This document shows positions 2,470-15,273 of a stretch of 64,000 nt of DNA, piece after piece. Made by a program: the position numbers and the translations under genes. The first letter of the stretch is position 1; each line of letters begins with the position of its first letter. The notes below the pieces were generated by a model, which was not told the origin of the DNA, did no database searches, and worked only from the letters and a program-made list of their open reading frames with translations. Source of the DNA: Escherichia phage HK3; sequence record PP526765. One strand, 5' to 3'.

Positions 2470-3351
2470 ATGAAAACTATTATTGAAGCCGTTGTCACCG
2501 CACAAGAGAAATTCTTCCACACAGAAAAATTTAATATCATCCAATTCCCATCTGGAGAAATTGGTGGAAACTTCTCTGAAGATTTTGTTAAGTTTACTGA
2601 GTGTAATGCTGGTAAGATTGACAATGTTATACTTACTGTGCAGGGATATGATAAAGATACACTGTTTGCATTAGCTTTGGCTAAGGATGCCATTGACAGT
2701 CTTGTTCCATATAAATCAGCGATGAAAACCGTTGTTTTCGGGTTCTTACCGAATGCTCGATATGACCGCCATATGTTCAAAGGCGATTCAGCAGCACTGA
2801 AAGCTTTTGCCAACCTCGTTAATGCAATGGGTTTTGATGCAGTATGTACTCTTGACCCTCACAGCAATGTTGCAGAAAACTTATTTAAGTGCTTCCAGAG
2901 CATGAAGCAAAAAGATGTGGCAGTACACTTTGCAAGTGACCCACGCATTGATTTATTGGTAGCTCCAGATGCAGGTGCAGCTAAGAAGACTGAAGAGGCT
3001 GCTAAAGAGGTGGATAAACCATACATCACAATGTCTAAAGTACGCAACCTTAAGACTGGTGAAATTACTGGTATGCGAATCCTTGATGCTGTTGATTTGA
3101 CAGATAAAACTGTCATGATTCTCGATGATATCTGTGATGGTGGTCGAACCTTCATAGAAGCAGCTAAACATCTTCGTGAAGCAGGTGCAAAACGTGTGGA
3201 ACTCTATGTAACTCATGGCATTTTCTCTAAAGGTGTTGAAAACTTACTTGACAATGGTATTGACCATATCTACACTACAAACTCTTTAGGGGAAGCTAAA
3301 GACCGTGGCTTAACACATTATGCCCAAGTTACTGTAATTACCATTGATTGA
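2470..3351 (+). CDS. ribose-phosphate pyrophosphokinase-like protein (Prs family; possibly ADPR-PP synthetase type)
   Basis: PRPP-binding motif ILDDICDGGRTF near C-terminus; ORF track starts at a TTG (2455), first ATG at 2470. Confidence 0.7.
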   Translation: MKTIIEAVVTAQEKFFHTEKFNIIQFPSGEIGGNFSEDFVKFTECNAGKIDNVILTVQGYDKDTLFALALAKDAIDSLVPYKSAMKTVVFGFLPNARYDRHMFKGDSAALKAFANLVNAMGFDAVCTLDPHSNVAENLFKCFQSMKQKDVAVHFASDPRIDLLVAPDAGAAKKTEEAAKEVDKPYITMSKVRNLKTGEITGMRILDAVDLTDKTVMILDDICDGGRTFIEAAKHLREAGAKRVELYVTHGIFSKGVENLLDNGIDHIYTTNSLGEAKDRGLTHYAQVTVITID

Positions 3352-3397: not shown

Positions 3398-5179
3398 ATG
3401 ACTAAATCACTTTATGCAGTACCAGCAGGTTTAAACGCGGATGCTTACAAGTCTGGCCATATTTATCAGTATCCTAGTGCAACAGAGTACCTAATGTTCA
3501 ACCTGACACCACGTAGTGATAAATGGTTTAACAGCCCTTTAGCAATTGACGGTGTAGTTGCTTTTGGTATTCAACGTTTTGTTAAAGATTACTTGATAGA
3601 CCACTGGAACACCACCTTCTTTGAACGTGACAAAAAAGAAGCAATTGATGAAATCTTAGAAGTCATGAACGGTGTTCTGGGTAAAGATGCTATTGGTCGA
3701 GAACATTGGGAAGCACTTCACGACTTAGGCTATCTACCAGTTGAAGTATACGCTGTAGAAGAAGGCACAGTTGTTCCTATGCGTGTACCAATGATTGTCT
3801 TCCAGAACACTGTTTCAGGTTTCCATTGGGTAGCGGGGTATCTGGAAGATGCTTTCTCTGCTGAGATTTGGAAGGCTTGCACCATTGCAACTATTGCATT
3901 GCACTACAAACGTATCTGTAAGAAGTGGGCTGACCTTACTTGTGACAATGACTTGCATTTGCCTTATCAGTGCCATGACTTTGCTATGCGTGGTATGTCT
4001 GGCTTTACTGATGACGCATTTAACGCTGTAGGCCACTTAACCAGCTTTAAAGGTACTGACAGTTTCCCTACTGTGTATACGGCTAAACGAATCTATGGAC
4101 AGTCCTACCCAATCTCTGATATTGGCAGCTCTGTACCAGCCACTGAACACTCTGTAATGTGTGCAAACATTGCTTGGGAAGGTGGTAATGAGTTGATTGA
4201 AGAAGAAAGACGCTTTAAAGGTGAGTTACAAACCTTCCGTCGTTTCTTAACAGAAACTTACCCAACTGGTATTGCAAGTGTTGTTTCAGACACTTATAAT
4301 TTCTGGAGAACTGTATCAGAAATCTTACCAGCACTTCGCAAAGAGATTATGGAACGTGATGGAAAACTGGTAATTCGTCCTGACTCTGGCGACCCTGTAC
4401 ATATTGTCACAGGCTATAAAGCAATCCACTTAGAGTGCGCTAAAAAAGCTTATTACGAACACCTAAGCAAGCTGGAAGCAAGCGACACAATGTTGAATGC
4501 TGTTCTGAACATGAAGCTTGAAAACATCAGTTATGGTATTGCTGGATGGCTACTGTCAGAAGGCTACGAGATGGTTGTTGACAGAGAAGACTTTGAAGTT
4601 GCTGATACAGTGATGTTGAAAAATGCTTATATGGTTGGCTCTGCAAACGTTGTAACACGTCCTGTAGCAGAGATTGATGGGGCTATTAAGACCCTGTATA
4701 ACATCTTTGGAGGGACTATCAACTCTAAAGGTTTTAAGGTACTAGATGAACACATTGGCCTTATCTATGGCGACTCTATCACGTTGGAACGTGCAAACGA
4801 AATCTTGAAGCGTTTGTATGAAATGGGTTTTGCAAGCTCTAACGTAGTGTTTGGTGTAGGTTCTTACACTTACCAGTACATGACTCGTGACACTTTTGCA
4901 TTTGCTGTCAAAGCAACTCTTGCAAGCATTGGCGGTAAAGAGATTATGCTTGCAAAAGACCCTAAAACAGATAGTGGTGTTAAGAAGTCTGCTTTTGGTG
5001 GTGTAGCGCCTATGTGGGATGGTGATAAGCTGAAAGCTGTAGATGGCTATGGATTCCAGAGCTTTGCAGATGCACTTGAACATCCAGCTTGTGCTTTACG
5101 TTTAGTCTTTAGCGACTCTGAGCAGTTCGGTTACACAACTCTTGGTGATATTCGAAACAATATTGACAAGCAGCTTTAA
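3398..5179 (+). CDS. nadV: nicotinamide phosphoribosyltransferase-like protein (NAMPT/NadV family; possibly Namat type)
   Basis: NAMPT signature stretches SVPATEHS, VVSDTYNFW, IRPDSGDP; track ORF starts at TTG 3380, first ATG at 3398. Confidence 0.85.
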   Translation: MTKSLYAVPAGLNADAYKSGHIYQYPSATEYLMFNLTPRSDKWFNSPLAIDGVVAFGIQRFVKDYLIDHWNTTFFERDKKEAIDEILEVMNGVLGKDAIGREHWEALHDLGYLPVEVYAVEEGTVVPMRVPMIVFQNTVSGFHWVAGYLEDAFSAEIWKACTIATIALHYKRICKKWADLTCDNDLHLPYQCHDFAMRGMSGFTDDAFNAVGHLTSFKGTDSFPTVYTAKRIYGQSYPISDIGSSVPATEHSVMCANIAWEGGNELIEEERRFKGELQTFRRFLTETYPTGIASVVSDTYNFWRTVSEILPALRKEIMERDGKLVIRPDSGDPVHIVTGYKAIHLECAKKAYYEHLSKLEASDTMLNAVLNMKLENISYGIAGWLLSEGYEMVVDREDFEVADTVMLKNAYMVGSANVVTRPVAEIDGAIKTLYNIFGGTINSKGFKVLDEHIGLIYGDSITLERANEILKRLYEMGFASSNVVFGVGSYTYQYMTRDTFAFAVKATLASIGGKEIMLAKDPKTDSGVKKSAFGGVAPMWDGDKLKAVDGYGFQSFADALEHPACALRLVFSDSEQFGYTTLGDIRNNIDKQL

Positions 5180-9752: not shown

Positions 9753-10301
9753 ATGAAGAAGTTGATTCTAGGTTTGTGCTTAATGTTTACAGCACACTTA
9801 TCTTATGCAGTTGACTGCCCAGAGCTATCAATTAGCCAAAAAGTAAACATGTTAAAAGCTTACCAGTATGGTGAGAATAATATGGGTAAAGGTTGGGGTA
9901 TCACTCTAGCTGCTATAGCCTTACAAGAGTCAGAGTTAGGTCTGAAGGTAGAGAATAAAAAGACCCATGACTATGGTATCTTCCAGAATCACTTGAAGAC
10001 TGTTGTAAAGCGTAACAAAATCAGTCCTAATGTGGCTAAAAAGAAACTCTTAAAAGATTTTGACTATGCTGCAAAGGAAACACACAAAGAGCTTGAATTT
10101 TGGACTAAGGTACACGGTCAACCAAAGTCAAAGAAGACTTTACAAAAAGTTTTAGCATCATATAATGCTGGGTATTCGTACAAAATTCCTAAAGCTAAGA
10201 AATACTCTCAAGATGTCTATAACAATATGAAAGTCATCGCTCAATGTGAATTTGCAACAAACATTTCTAAGGTAAATCATGAAAAAATTAAGAAAGTCTG
10301 A
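9753..10301 (+). CDS. secreted lytic-transglycosylase-like protein
   Basis: N-terminal signal peptide (MKKLILGLCLMFTAHLSYA); ..ALQESELG...DYGIFQN resembles the SLT-domain catalytic E-S plus GLMQ-like motif. Confidence 0.45.
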   Translation: MKKLILGLCLMFTAHLSYAVDCPELSISQKVNMLKAYQYGENNMGKGWGITLAAIALQESELGLKVENKKTHDYGIFQNHLKTVVKRNKISPNVAKKKLLKDFDYAAKETHKELEFWTKVHGQPKSKKTLQKVLASYNAGYSYKIPKAKKYSQDVYNNMKVIAQCEFATNISKVNHEKIKKV

Positions 10302-10974
10302 TGAAGTGCTGTGTCATGCTTACGACTTGCATCCTCATGAGTTAGGTCTTGATTCCTGTATATGGACTCCAGAACAGTGCAGGGATTTTGAAGACACTGC
10401 AAGAGAGGTTGTATGTTCACTTGAAGAGTTCCACACATCAGAACCAATTGTGAACGTTGTGGACAAAGAGACTGGACAATCTCTAGGTGTAAGACGTGAC
10501 AGTTTAGTCATAGTCAATAAAGACCTTGTAGAAAAAGGTAACCTCATCTTAGCAGATATTGATGGTGTTCTTACAAATTTTAATCACGAAGATTGCTCAA
10601 CGGAATTGACTGATGGGTCATTCTCACAGTACACTAATCTTCTTGACTCTGTAAGAGCAAAACCAACGTATGTTTTTAGTATTATTGATGCAATTGCTAA
10701 TCATGCTGCCATTGGACTCTTGACAGCGAGAGGTGAATCTCAGAGAATACCTACTGAGATGTTTTTAAGGCATAACATAGAGCACGATTACATGCTTTTT
10801 ATGCGTGGTTTTGGAACTAACTCTATAAATGCAGAAAGTTTGAAAGTTAGGATGATTCAGTCTTGCATTCTTCCTTACTTTGATATAGTATGTTTTATAG
10901 AAGATACAGAGAAGAATGTTCAGAAGGTAAACAGAATCCTTCCGCACATTAAAACTATGTTAGTAAAACATTGA
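10279..10974 (+). CDS. HAD-superfamily hydrolase, 5'(3')-deoxyribonucleotidase-like
   Basis: HAD motif I DIDGVL (ILADIDGVLTNF) and downstream T/D motifs; true start may be internal. Confidence 0.4.
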   Translation: MKKLRKSDEVLCHAYDLHPHELGLDSCIWTPEQCRDFEDTAREVVCSLEEFHTSEPIVNVVDKETGQSLGVRRDSLVIVNKDLVEKGNLILADIDGVLTNFNHEDCSTELTDGSFSQYTNLLDSVRAKPTYVFSIIDAIANHAAIGLLTARGESQRIPTEMFLRHNIEHDYMLFMRGFGTNSINAESLKVRMIQSCILPYFDIVCFIEDTEKNVQKVNRILPHIKTMLVKH

Positions 10975-13099: not shown

Positions 13100-13300
13100 A
13101 TGGCTGACTTCTGCAAAGACTGTTCTATCGAAATGTTTGGACGTGATACAGGTGACTTAAAAGGTCTTATCACTGAAGACGACTTTAAAGCTGGTTATGC
13201 AATGCCAGTAATCTGTGAAGGTTGTGGGTGTATCTGGGTAGACCACGAAGGGCAACGTGTAAAACCTTCAGAGGATAAAGAATCTTGGGAGAGATGCTAA
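13100..13300 (+). CDS. small Cys-rich protein (CxxC...CxGC, 66 aa)
   Basis: ATG at 13100 (MADFCKDCS...ICEGCGC); stop overlaps next start (TAAATG). Confidence 0.35.
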   Translation: MADFCKDCSIEMFGRDTGDLKGLITEDDFKAGYAMPVICEGCGCIWVDHEGQRVKPSEDKESWERC

Positions 13301-14086
13301 ATGGGTATTGTAAAAATCATCAATGGGGATATCTTCTCCGCATTTGATAAAGGTAAGTTTGATATCATTGGTCACGGTTGTAACTGTATGAACTTAATGG
13401 GTGCGGGTATCGCTGACAAGATTTCTAAACTTTACCCAAAAGCATATGAGACCGATACAGAAGTTTATCTGTATGCAGGCGGTATAGGCCACAAACCCTG
13501 TGAAAATTTACTAGGCAACTTCTCTGTAGCACGTTTAGAACAAGGCCGTATAGCTAACCTTTACACTCAGCTTAAGACTGGTAAAGATGCCCGATACAGT
13601 GCTTTAGAGTCATCTTTGAAACAACTTAACAGATACTGTGAAGTTAATCAGTTGAAGAAAGTTGGTTTACCTATGATTAGTGCAGGTATCGGTGGACTTG
13701 ACCCTCAAGCCGTCACCGTTATCATTAATCAGGTGATGAAGAGTGTAGATGTCTATCTATATGTCTACGAAGGAGAGATGTACCACAAGTTACGCTCAGG
13801 TTGGAAGAACTACTGTGAACCAGAATACTTTGCAGGTGTAGTAGTGTTCACTGACGATGCAGTTACCCTCTTCAGACGAAGAAAAGGTAAGGTACATCAA
13901 AGTAACCCTCCGGTTGAAAAGATGTCTCTAAGTAACGCTCTAGTTACCCACCTGTCGAAGAGCAATCACAGAATTGCAGTAACATTTGGCAGTGATGCAG
14001 ATACATATATCTATGCAAGAACTGATGAGGATGTTGAGGGAATTTTCTCTTCACCGGAAGTTACCTTCTTAGACGCAAAGAACTAA
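13301..14086 (+). CDS. macro-domain protein, TARG1/OARD1-like ADP-ribose hydrolase fold, with C-terminal extension
   Basis: GDIF...DIIGHGCNCMNLMGAGIA and LPMISAGIGGLD match the TARG1-type macro motifs (GDLF...HCISEDCRMGAGIA...MPRIGCGLD) as recalled. Confidence 0.55.
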   Translation: MGIVKIINGDIFSAFDKGKFDIIGHGCNCMNLMGAGIADKISKLYPKAYETDTEVYLYAGGIGHKPCENLLGNFSVARLEQGRIANLYTQLKTGKDARYSALESSLKQLNRYCEVNQLKKVGLPMISAGIGGLDPQAVTVIINQVMKSVDVYLYVYEGEMYHKLRSGWKNYCEPEYFAGVVVFTDDAVTLFRRRKGKVHQSNPPVEKMSLSNALVTHLSKSNHRIAVTFGSDADTYIYARTDEDVEGIFSSPEVTFLDAKN

Positions 14087-14161
14087 GAAACTCTGTAGAA
14101 TATTCACAATAGACTAAGCCTTTCTTATCTGGTAAATTTTCAGGTAAGGAGGGCTTTTTCA

Positions 14162-14352
14162 TTTTAGAATTGTGCAGGTAGAGTTCTGGACAGAAATCTG
14201 TAGAGAGAATTTTGAACTCCAAAGAGAAAATTCATTTTCAAACTGTGCAGGTAATCTCCAAAGAGCTTTTTCATTTTCAAAATGTGCAGAGAAAAATCAG
14301 GTCGGGCAAGAAAAATCATTTTCGAATTGTGCAGGTAGGTGGGTGCAGGTGG
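14162..14352. repeat. four direct repeats, consensus TTTTCATTTTCRAAWTGTGCAGGTA (iteron-like)
   Basis: copies near 14162, 14236, 14272, 14318; no credible coding capacity. Confidence 0.7.
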
Positions 14353-14513
14353 GGATGTCGCCATTTCTCACAAGGCTACCACATCCGAAAAGAAAAGTCA
14401 ACAGAAAAATTTGTAGCGGATTGAAAAATAATTCTTGATTTGTGTTCTGTTTTGTGGTATTCGCGCGCACCCGTTTCATTACATTTTTGCCAAAAATATT
14501 TTTAAAATTTTTA

Positions 14514-14542
14514 TTGACTCATCGAACGGGTTTTTATAGTAT
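14514..14542 (+). promoter_or_regulatory. strong sigma70-like promoter TTGACT-N17-TAGTAT with A/T-rich UP-like tract
   Basis: read directly; flanked by inverted 7-mers ACCCGTT (14470) and AACGGGT (14525); heads the small-ORF array. Confidence 0.6.
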
Positions 14543-14595
14543 CTGCATCAGACGGGGCGACAAGCCCGATAGCCTTAAACTAGGAGATTCAAAAA

Positions 14596-14802
14596 ATGAT
14601 TTACAGCCGTGAATTGATGGTCACAACTAACGTTAACACAAAGGTAAAACGTTTTTATATGCAAGTATGCGGCGCATGGCGTAGAATATCAGAATCTGAC
14701 TATTGCAACTATGTAGAAACGGCTATTAATTCTAATTGCTATCTTACAAAGAATACAAAGCGACATATAAAACAGACAGCGGTTTACTATTACGATATAT
14801 AA
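14596..14802 (+). CDS. array small ORF 1 (68 aa)
   Basis: ATG 8 nt after TAGGAGA in conserved cassette. Confidence 0.5.
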   Translation: MIYSRELMVTTNVNTKVKRFYMQVCGAWRRISESDYCNYVETAINSNCYLTKNTKRHIKQTAVYYYDI

Positions 14803-14892
14803 AAAGTACTTTACAGGGGGCTTAAAAGCTGATATCTTAAGCCCCAGATAAAGAACTTTACCACATTAACCTTAAACTAGGAGATTCAAAAA

Positions 14893-15273
14893 ATGGCATA
14901 TCGTGCACCTAAATTCATCAATAAAGACAACTTCCGCAACGCACTGGAAAAATCACTTGATGAGAATTTTACAGGTCAGATTATTGTTGTTCACGCATTC
15001 AATTTTAAGTATGATATTAACGGGAACAGAATCAACCATTACACGGCAACCATGTTAGATGGTACACTATCAAGTGAAAAAGCTGTACTGAATGCACTTG
15101 CAGGACGTGGCAAAAACCTGATAAAATGCAATAAGAGACGTTATCAGGGCGGCGCATATGGTTATGATGACGCTGTTTACCATCTTGAAAATATGGGCTA
15201 TCAGGTGGAAAAAGCTGGGGTCTCTCAAATAATCGGCAGTGACGGCTATGTGACAATTTTCAAAATTAACTAA
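14893..15273 (+). CDS. array small ORF 2 (126 aa)
   Basis: conserved cassette upstream. Confidence 0.55.
   Translation: MAYRAPKFINKDNFRNALEKSLDENFTGQIIVVHAFNFKYDINGNRINHYTATMLDGTLSSEKAVLNALAGRGKNLIKCNKRRYQGGAYGYDDAVYHLENMGYQVEKAGVSQIIGSDGYVTIFKIN

Follow-up and report, generated by a model that had tools for sequence, protein, structure and literature searches.

The 64,000-nucleotide stretch of Escherichia phage HK3 analysed here (record PP526765; hereafter, the window) contains, at 13301..14086 on the plus strand, a complete open reading frame (ORF) of 261 amino acids plus stop, in which a macro domain is fused to an orphan C-terminal module. A Shine-Dalgarno-like GGGAGAG in the sequence (a GGAG-type ribosome-binding site; 13287..13293, +) ends 7 nt before the ATG, and the strand opposite the frame is full of stops. 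The window derives from a Felixounavirus (a FelixO1-like myovirus of the Ounavirinae), with ~96% identity to Escherichia phage mio and to Bas63 and ~94% identity to many E. coli and Salmonella phages; the gene itself is the orthologue (97% identical) of bas63_0095 in the BASEL phage Bas63/JohannRWettstein. PHROG 335 covers the protein over its full length (E=6e-111), and a full-length homologue is present in 257 phage records (FelixO1-like), where the database labels differ: 'putative phosphatase', 'O-acetyl-ADP-ribose deacetylase', 'ymdB' and 'macro domain-containing protein' are all in use. There is no second macro domain in the 64-kb window.

Residues 1-157 (13301..13771, +) constitute a macro domain of the TARG1/DarG/Poa1p class with a Gln-type active site, an assignment in which Pfam, a profile search of the PDB, an AlphaFold2 model, Foldseek and the pattern of invariant residues concur. 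Pfam Macro (PF01661) matches residues 25-141 with E=7.5e-8 (32.8 bits against a cutoff of 22), and the AlphaFold2 model has a macro fold over residues 1-155 (three-layer α/β/α, two Gly-rich loops) with a mean predicted local distance difference test (pLDDT) score of 79. When the profile of an alignment of the protein with its database homologues was searched against the PDB, the best match was TARG1/OARD1 (1.6e-14), followed by yeast Poa1p (3e-13) and the DarG macro domain (5m3i/5m31; ~1e-11), and next by BT1257 and SCO6735 (both ~1e-9); MacroD and viral macro chains were many orders weaker than TARG1 (E>=5e-3). Foldseek with the AlphaFold2 model returned TARG1 (E=3e-9), T. aquaticus DarG and Poa1p, in that order, with target-normalised template-modelling scores (TMt) of 0.72-0.82 (0.78-0.82 for TARG1). 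DarG was moreover the sole PADLOC match (1.4e-11) and the top NCBIfam match. An earlier note on this DNA, written from the letters alone, had delineated the ORF, quoted three motifs within it, called a macro domain of the TARG1/DarG class and suggested a comparison by hidden Markov model (HMM) and structure; the ORF and all three motifs are present exactly as it gave them, and the comparison, run here, bears out the class, the macro fold being present and the nearest solved relatives being TARG1/OARD1, the DarG macro domain and Poa1p, the last of these in the same ('ALC1-like') class. Given its fold, its class, its ADP-ribose-binding loops and the conservation of His25, Asn28 and Gln90, we conclude that the protein is a genuine macro domain of the ADP-ribose-processing type.

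Two narrower labels are not borne out. A MacroD/YmdB-type O-acetyl-ADP-ribose deacetylase is disfavoured by the score for NCBIfam PRK00431 (11.8 bits against a cutoff of 278) and by MacroD matches in the PDB that are far weaker than those of the TARG1 class. Nor is the protein an equivalent of DarG: NCBIfam NF048014 scores 42.7 bits against a cutoff of 250, and the DarT-binding half is unmatched.

The C-terminal region, residues 158-261 (13772..14083, +), comprises a linker helix (158-166) and then a β-rich module (~175-250). Pfam gives no match to these ~100 residues even at E<=10, in agreement with the earlier note, which had left the C-terminal ~110 amino acids unassigned. The module is fast-evolving and without a detectable fold or sequence relative, and it is seen only in fusion with this macro clade in FelixO1-like myoviruses. 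Its sole conserved motif, N-[YF]-x-x-P-x-x-F-x-G, lies at the module start, where residues 170-179 read N-Y-C-E-P-E-Y-F-A-G. In two distant Ounavirinae, Erwinia phage phiEa104 (L008:8483-9265) and Pectobacterium phage Wc4 (L007:13001-13810), the macro genes also encode proteins of 260-269 amino acids; the module of Wc4 is found by an HMM of the C-terminal region (E=4e-12), and the C-terminal ~100 residues of phiEa104 are missed both by this HMM and by tblastn, which matches residues 3-153 only. By this comparison, the C-terminal module has a much higher rate of evolution than the macro domain.

The Gln-type active site

Loop 1 (H25-G-C-N28-C...M33-G-A-G-I-A38; 13373-13414, +) corresponds to the quoted motif HGCNCMNLMGAGIA (residues 25-38) and loop 2 (P124...G127-A-G129-I-G-G-L-D134; 13667-13702, +) to LPMISAGIGGLD (residues 123-134), whereas the catalytic position falls in N86-L-Y-T-Q90 (13556-13570, +); the remaining quoted motif, GDIF, occupies residues 9-12. 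The stretches G34-A-G36 and G127-A-G129-I-G-G of the two loops are invariant or nearly so among the homologues, and, within the family alignment, G9, H25, G26, N28, C29, M33-G-A-G36, A38, N86, L87, T89, Q90, G94, P124 and G129 are invariant. A [Y/F]-[T/S/G]-Q motif is present at the catalytic position in all ~120 retrieved homologues and in T4 Tk.4, which was found independently by tblastn.

In the profile alignment to TARG1, the columns of Lys84, Asp125 and Ser35 are filled by Gln90, Gly131 and Asn28, respectively. As the Lys84/Asp125 dyad is replaced, the TARG1 mechanism is not transferable; the catalytic-site residues whose absence on alignment the earlier note had named as a refutation are, for the TARG1 mechanism, indeed absent. 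The DarG mechanism was rejected likewise, by way of the TARG1 alignment, as Gln90 stands at the position of TARG1 Lys84, which has been equated with the catalytic Lys80 of DarG (PMC9411070). On these alignments, the protein is not mechanistically a TARG1 or a DarG.

The replacement of Lys by Gln does not abolish activity, however, as the example of SCO6735 shows: its Gln85 occupies the catalytic-Lys position, the Q85A variant loses all activity, and the enzyme removes thymidine-linked ADP-ribose from DNA, being active on both DNA and protein substrates (PMC9411070). In our alignment, the H-x-C-N loop recurs in SCO6735 (AHVCND...N81(+4)=Q85), as does the four-residue Asn-to-Gln spacing seen from N86 to Q90. 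Q90 is followed by a short loop (QLKTGKDARY) that contains K92, K95 and R98, with K/R95 kept in the two-domain clade; the SCO6735 counterpart of this loop is extended and mobile and has Lys89 and Lys94 for DNA binding. The N-terminal loop aligns directly with that of Poa1p ('IHSCNCNGSWGGGIA...YPKAE'), H25 corresponding to Poa1p H23 and L32 to Poa1p S30.

The transcription unit and its surroundings

The macro gene is the last of a co-directional block that runs through Adps, Namat, three small genes, rIIA, rIIB, pnk, the spanins and small ORFs. Adps (the ADP-ribose (ADPR)-pyrophosphate synthetase; 2470..3351, +; 94% identical to Bas63_0079) and Namat (the nicotinamide ADPR transferase; 3398..5179, +; 98% identical to Bas63_0080) are the enzymes of NARP1, the NAD+ reconstitution pathway that was discovered in genes 79-80 of Bas63; in public records, they are still annotated as ribose-phosphate pyrophosphokinase and nicotinamide phosphoribosyltransferase. 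A distance of 8.1 kb (7.8 kb in Bas63), or ~15 genes, separates the end of Namat from the start of the macro gene, which follows downstream in the same orientation. NARP1 is syntenic with the two-domain macro gene in six lineages, namely, Felixounavirus, Bas63, Kolesnikvirus phiEa104, Pectobacterium phage Wc4 and the contigs with P0036 and P0030. A polynucleotide kinase/phosphatase gene (HAD_PNKP-type; 10279-10974, +) lies 2.3 kb 5' of the macro gene.

Directly 5' of the macro gene is a 66-residue zinc-ribbon-like ORF with a CxxC...CxxC pattern (MADFCKDCSIEMFG...CEGCGC...; 13100-13300, +), the TAA of which abuts the macro ATG, suggesting translational coupling. In two other genomes, Citrobacter phage Moogle and the divergent P0036 metagenomic contig (L011:9792-9998), the macro gene is likewise preceded by this small protein, which is absent from Wc4, phiEa104 and OK283618.

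A terminator-like hairpin followed by a T-run (14116..14156, +) ends the transcription unit of which the macro gene is the last member. Past the hairpin, a non-coding stretch of ~500 nt with repeats leads to an array of small genes that have a recurring leader sequence, such that the earlier placement of the gene just upstream of an early array is descriptively right. The non-coding gap, between the hairpin and the next promoter-like site (14514-14542), holds four to five direct copies of a ~34-nt element (core TCATTTTCnAAnTGTGCAG; 14144-14416) with start-to-start distances of 73, 39, 45 and 82 nt. These repeats could serve as binding sites for a regulator, or the array could be related to an origin or to packaging; the small ORFs predicted across them (for example, bas63_0096/97 in Bas63 and, in the window, the repetitive 'FSNCAG' ORFs) are probably repeat artefacts. 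Within the array, a 29-nt leader comprising a ribosome-binding site and start codon, TAnCCTTAAACTAGGAGATTCAAAAAATG, is near-identical at 14570-14598 and 14867-14895, ahead of two successive small genes, which indicates a duplicated translation-initiation cassette. In the FelixO1-like contig OK283618.1, the array 3' of the macro gene includes an Ocr-like gene (PF08684; L013:15115-15453), which suggests that the array is an anti-defence island; the label of this record, 'Listeria phage LPML1', looks odd for a genome with Ounavirinae synteny.

Candidate substrates in counter-defence

It is likely that the protein is a macro-domain hydrolase that acts on an ADP-ribose derivative in counter-defence. 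Phage counter-defence macro domains are already known from reports of 2025-2026, which describe AdfM against DarTG2 and Adpp against aRES; what is new is the FelixO1-type two-domain form, with its orphan module, unlinked to yet syntenic with NARP1. In a neighbour-joining tree of the macro domains with bootstrap, the two-domain proteins (Felix, Moogle, Wc4, phiEa104 and the metagenomic P0009, P0016, P0018, P0030 and P0036) form one clade with 93% support. T4 Tk.4 falls in a separate clade and the NARP1-adjacent macro domains in several basal groups, most of the latter having HQxNC, YGQ and a loop that is 3-7 residues longer after the Gln. Our approximate ranking places an AdfM-like role first, an Adpp-like role in trans second, a dual role third and other roles last.

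Our leading, albeit tentative, assignment is that the protein is an AdfM-like orphan eraser, as T4 Tk.4 is, with the thymidine-linked ADP-ribose that DarT2-type toxins put on replicating phage single-stranded DNA as its physiological substrate. T4 Tk.4 is the closest characterized homologue by score (34% identity over residues 3-157, 79 bits, E=4e-23); its gene is flanked by vs and tk.3 and carries the annotation 'phosphatase; A1pp motif'. In a transposon screen on DarTG2 hosts, tk.4 was the single hit, and its clean knockout sensitizes T4, for which the product was named AdfM (bioRxiv 10.1101/2025.11.20.689424). PhiKZ gp104, independently named AdfM in 2026, takes DarT2 ADP-ribose off DNA in vitro, and is a Lys-type enzyme (N23/K78) (PMC13309987). 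The Felix-type and T4-type proteins have HGCNC, YTQ and the short loop after the Gln in common, which favours AdfM. Moreover, the macro clade is present in 993 Escherichia-phage records and Namat/Nampt in only 191, leaving ~800 that carry the clade without Namat/Nampt and thereby pointing to a NARP1-independent role of the clade (the T4-likes).

The protein, a member of the phage 'HxCNC...YTQ' clade, would be an ADP-ribose 1''-hydrolase. The ADP-ribose moiety would be held in the cleft between the two Gly-rich loops, and whatever sits on C1'' of the distal ribose would be cleaved; Gln90 would position the ribose and a water, as in SCO6735, in place of the lysine Schiff base of a TARG1-style reaction. 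The C-terminal module would presumably be a non-catalytic binding or targeting domain peculiar to the FelixO1-like phages.

A number of observations weigh against this assignment. For T4 Tk.4, the evidence is purely genetic and is from a preprint, and 34% identity does not carry over substrate specificity; T4 Tk.4 is as similar to an Adpp-type macro domain (35%, 78 bits) as to the FelixO1-type protein, and the deep nodes of the macro tree are without support. The biochemically validated AdfM (PhiKZ) and DarG are both Lys-type (PMC13309987), and we found no published data on any Felixounavirus against DarTG. The C-terminal module does not match the DarT-binding domain of DarG, either by HMM or by fold, and there is no charge signature that is consistent across the C-terminal modules. 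Lastly, the synteny of NARP1 with the macro gene, seen in all six of the FelixO1-like lineages examined, favours Adpp.

This last point introduces a rival that we consider possible, although it ranks behind the AdfM-like role: the protein may be an ADPR-1''-phosphate phosphatase that serves in trans as the Adpp of a NARP1-AP pathway. Here, a host aRES (RES-domain) protein would cut NAD+ to nicotinamide and ADPR-1''-phosphate, the macro protein would yield ADPR, and the phage-encoded Adps and Namat would rebuild NAD+. The precedent is Adpp of Vibrio phage Gary, a Poa1p-like macro domain inside NARP1 operons, which in vitro converts ADPR-1''-phosphate, the aRES product, to ADPR, from which Adps and Namat can rebuild NAD+; Adpp is required for NARP1-AP to beat aRES, and its H24, altered in the only mutant made (H24A), is essential (bioRxiv 10.64898/2026.01.28.702374). 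H24 is conserved in all macro groups and is equivalent to the invariant H25 of the FelixO1-type protein, so the sole Adpp residue proven essential is retained. The Gary protein appears in Table S1 of the aRES preprint; our comparison used the ~99%-identical Achelous protein, located between Adps and Namat, which belongs to the same macro clade and shares 28% identity with the FelixO1-type protein (E=4e-14) and 35% with T4 Tk.4. The N-terminal loop also fits Poa1p (HSCNC...GGGIA), the window has both NARP1 enzymes at 94% and 98% identity to those of Bas63, and the synteny of NARP1 with the two-domain macro gene (6/6 lineages) persists down to ~30% macro identity. Additionally, aRES is found in E. 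coli, Klebsiella and Enterobacter, which are hosts of FelixO1-like phages, and ADPR-cyclic-phosphate has been seen in Bas63 infections; an extension of the same scheme is that the protein might recycle such side products of NARP1 after ring opening.

Against a role in trans, the macro gene lies ~15 genes from NARP1, whereas every listed NARP1-AP case has the macro gene within the operon, and Table S1 of the aRES preprint includes neither the FelixO1-type macro protein nor, in its NARP1-AP list, any Escherichia or Salmonella phage. The protein is without the longer post-Gln loop and the HQxNC of the NARP1-adjacent macro domains and is nearer to Tk.4 of T4, which has no NARP1; an extra fast-evolving domain would serve no obvious purpose in a small-molecule phosphatase; and the co-occurrence with NARP1 may be plain core-genome synteny. 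For DISCRIMINATING the two (AdfM versus Adpp), neither line of evidence is decisive. The earlier note's idea of a counter to ADP-ribosylating defences gains a precedent in T4 Tk.4, which is needed on DarTG2 hosts, but the equally concrete Adpp/NARP1 alternative, centred on NAD+, was missed in a phage that carries NARP1.

A dual role is rather unlikely, but would reconcile the two: one active site would cut both the C1''-N bond of thymidine-linked ADP-ribose (DarT2) and the C1''-O-P bond of ADPR-1''-phosphate (aRES), and the division between AdfM and Adpp would reflect which assay each laboratory ran. It is chemically plausible, as TARG1-class enzymes cleave several ADP-ribose linkages, with reversal of thymidine-linked, phosphate-linked and O-acetyl ADP-ribose documented, and SCO6735 handles both DNA and protein substrates (PMC9411070). 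Moreover, the Felix, T4 AdfM and Adpp-type proteins are near-equidistant (34%, 35% and 28%) and have the His, Asn and Gln in common. However, the difference in loop length beside the catalytic Gln suggests some specialization.

An elaboration of the dual role, to which we give a low probability, is a two-module factor, in which a promiscuous Gln-type site erases both DarT2 thymidine-linked ADP-ribose and the aRES 1''-phosphate (the latter feeding NARP1) as the C-terminal domain docks a variable partner. This partner would be a host toxin such as DarT2 or aRES (DarG, through its DarT-binding domain, and the aRad inhibitors offer analogies) or else the NARP1 or replication machinery of the phage. 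If this is true, the protein would join enzymatic and stoichiometric anti-defence in one molecule and would have a new fold.

Least probable is a role in housekeeping or other ADPR metabolism, be it as a YmdB-like O-acetyl-ADP-ribose deacetylase, as an Appr-1''-p phosphatase acting with the nearby pnk, or as a binder or hydrolase of ADPR-derived immune signals (Thoeris): the 'phosphatase', 'O-acetyl-ADP-ribose deacetylase' and 'ymdB' labels of relatives, the pnk gene 2.3 kb upstream and a survey from the Aravind laboratory, which makes the case for a possible preference of phage macro domains for soluble ADPR derivatives, speak for it, but the match to the MacroD/YmdB model is negligible (PRK00431, 11.8 bits against 278), there is no evidence for the binding of immune signals, and the annotation of the Bas63 genome lists no RNA ligase, KptA/Tpt1 or 2H phosphoesterase, so that there is no evident source of Appr>p from RNA repair.

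The choice between these roles has consequences beyond this gene. The FelixO1-type protein lies between AdfM and Adpp in sequence, and its gene comes from the phage lineage that yielded the discovery of NARP1 (Bas63) and in which knockouts are routine; whether it is single- or dual-purpose bears on a Gln-type macro clade of >2,700 phage records. Were the Adpp-like role to hold, the NARP1 of Felixounavirus would already be a NARP1-AP pathway with an unlinked phosphatase. The C-terminal domain is restricted to one lineage, and identification of its partner could bring to light a new means by which a defence protein is targeted or inhibited. Meanwhile, the 'phosphatase' and 'O-acetyl-ADP-ribose deacetylase' labels on hundreds of therapeutic-candidate Felixounavirus genomes reflect motif similarity only.

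Comparison with known systems

Human TARG1/OARD1 (PDB codes: 4j5q-s) is the best match of the FelixO1-type protein by profile (1.6e-14) and by fold (TMt ~0.8), and has the MGAGIA loop, but it differs in its Lys84/Asp125 dyad and in Ser35, for which the phage protein has Gln90, Gly131 and Asn28. PhiKZ gp104 and DarG of DarTG2 have macro domains of the same class, and DarG has the same two-domain layout, with the macro domain preceding a C-terminal domain; however, its DarT-binding C-terminal domain is not matched, the FelixO1-type gene has no darT neighbour, and the catalytic residue is Lys in both DarG (K80) and PhiKZ gp104 (K78), rather than Gln. In yeast Poa1p (PDB code: 6lfq; profile 3e-13), the H-x-C-N-C...G-x-G-I-A...YPKA stretch aligns, but Ser30 replaces Leu32, similarity is weak past the first ~60 residues in single-sequence searches, and the enzyme has a eukaryotic housekeeping function in tRNA splicing.

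SCO6735 of Streptomyces coelicolor (PDB code: 5e3b) is of the ALC1-like class, with Gln for Lys and H-x-C-N, and provides the precedent for Gln-type cleavage of thymidine-linked ADP-ribose; it is nevertheless a cellular, RecA-regulated and distant relative (profile ~1e-9), with a longer mobile loop bearing Lys89 and Lys94 and without a C-terminal module. Adpp of Vibrio phage Gary is a Poa1p-like macro domain with the conserved His (H24/H25), Asn and Gln, from a phage that also encodes Adps and Namat. Adpp differs in being encoded between Adps and Namat, in its HQCNC, YGQ and longer post-Gln loop, and in its length of ~158 amino acids, without the C-terminal module. T4 Tk.4 differs in that it consists of the macro domain only (155 amino acids, whereas the FelixO1-type protein adds an orphan module of ~100 residues), in that T4 is without NARP1 whereas the FelixO1-type phage has it, and in that the anti-DarTG2 phenotype is known for T4 only; the two proteins belong to different supported subclades. 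Tk.4 nonetheless has the same HGCNC, the same NLYTQ and the same short post-Gln loop and, like the FelixO1-type protein, is the product of a stand-alone phage gene without an adjacent toxin.

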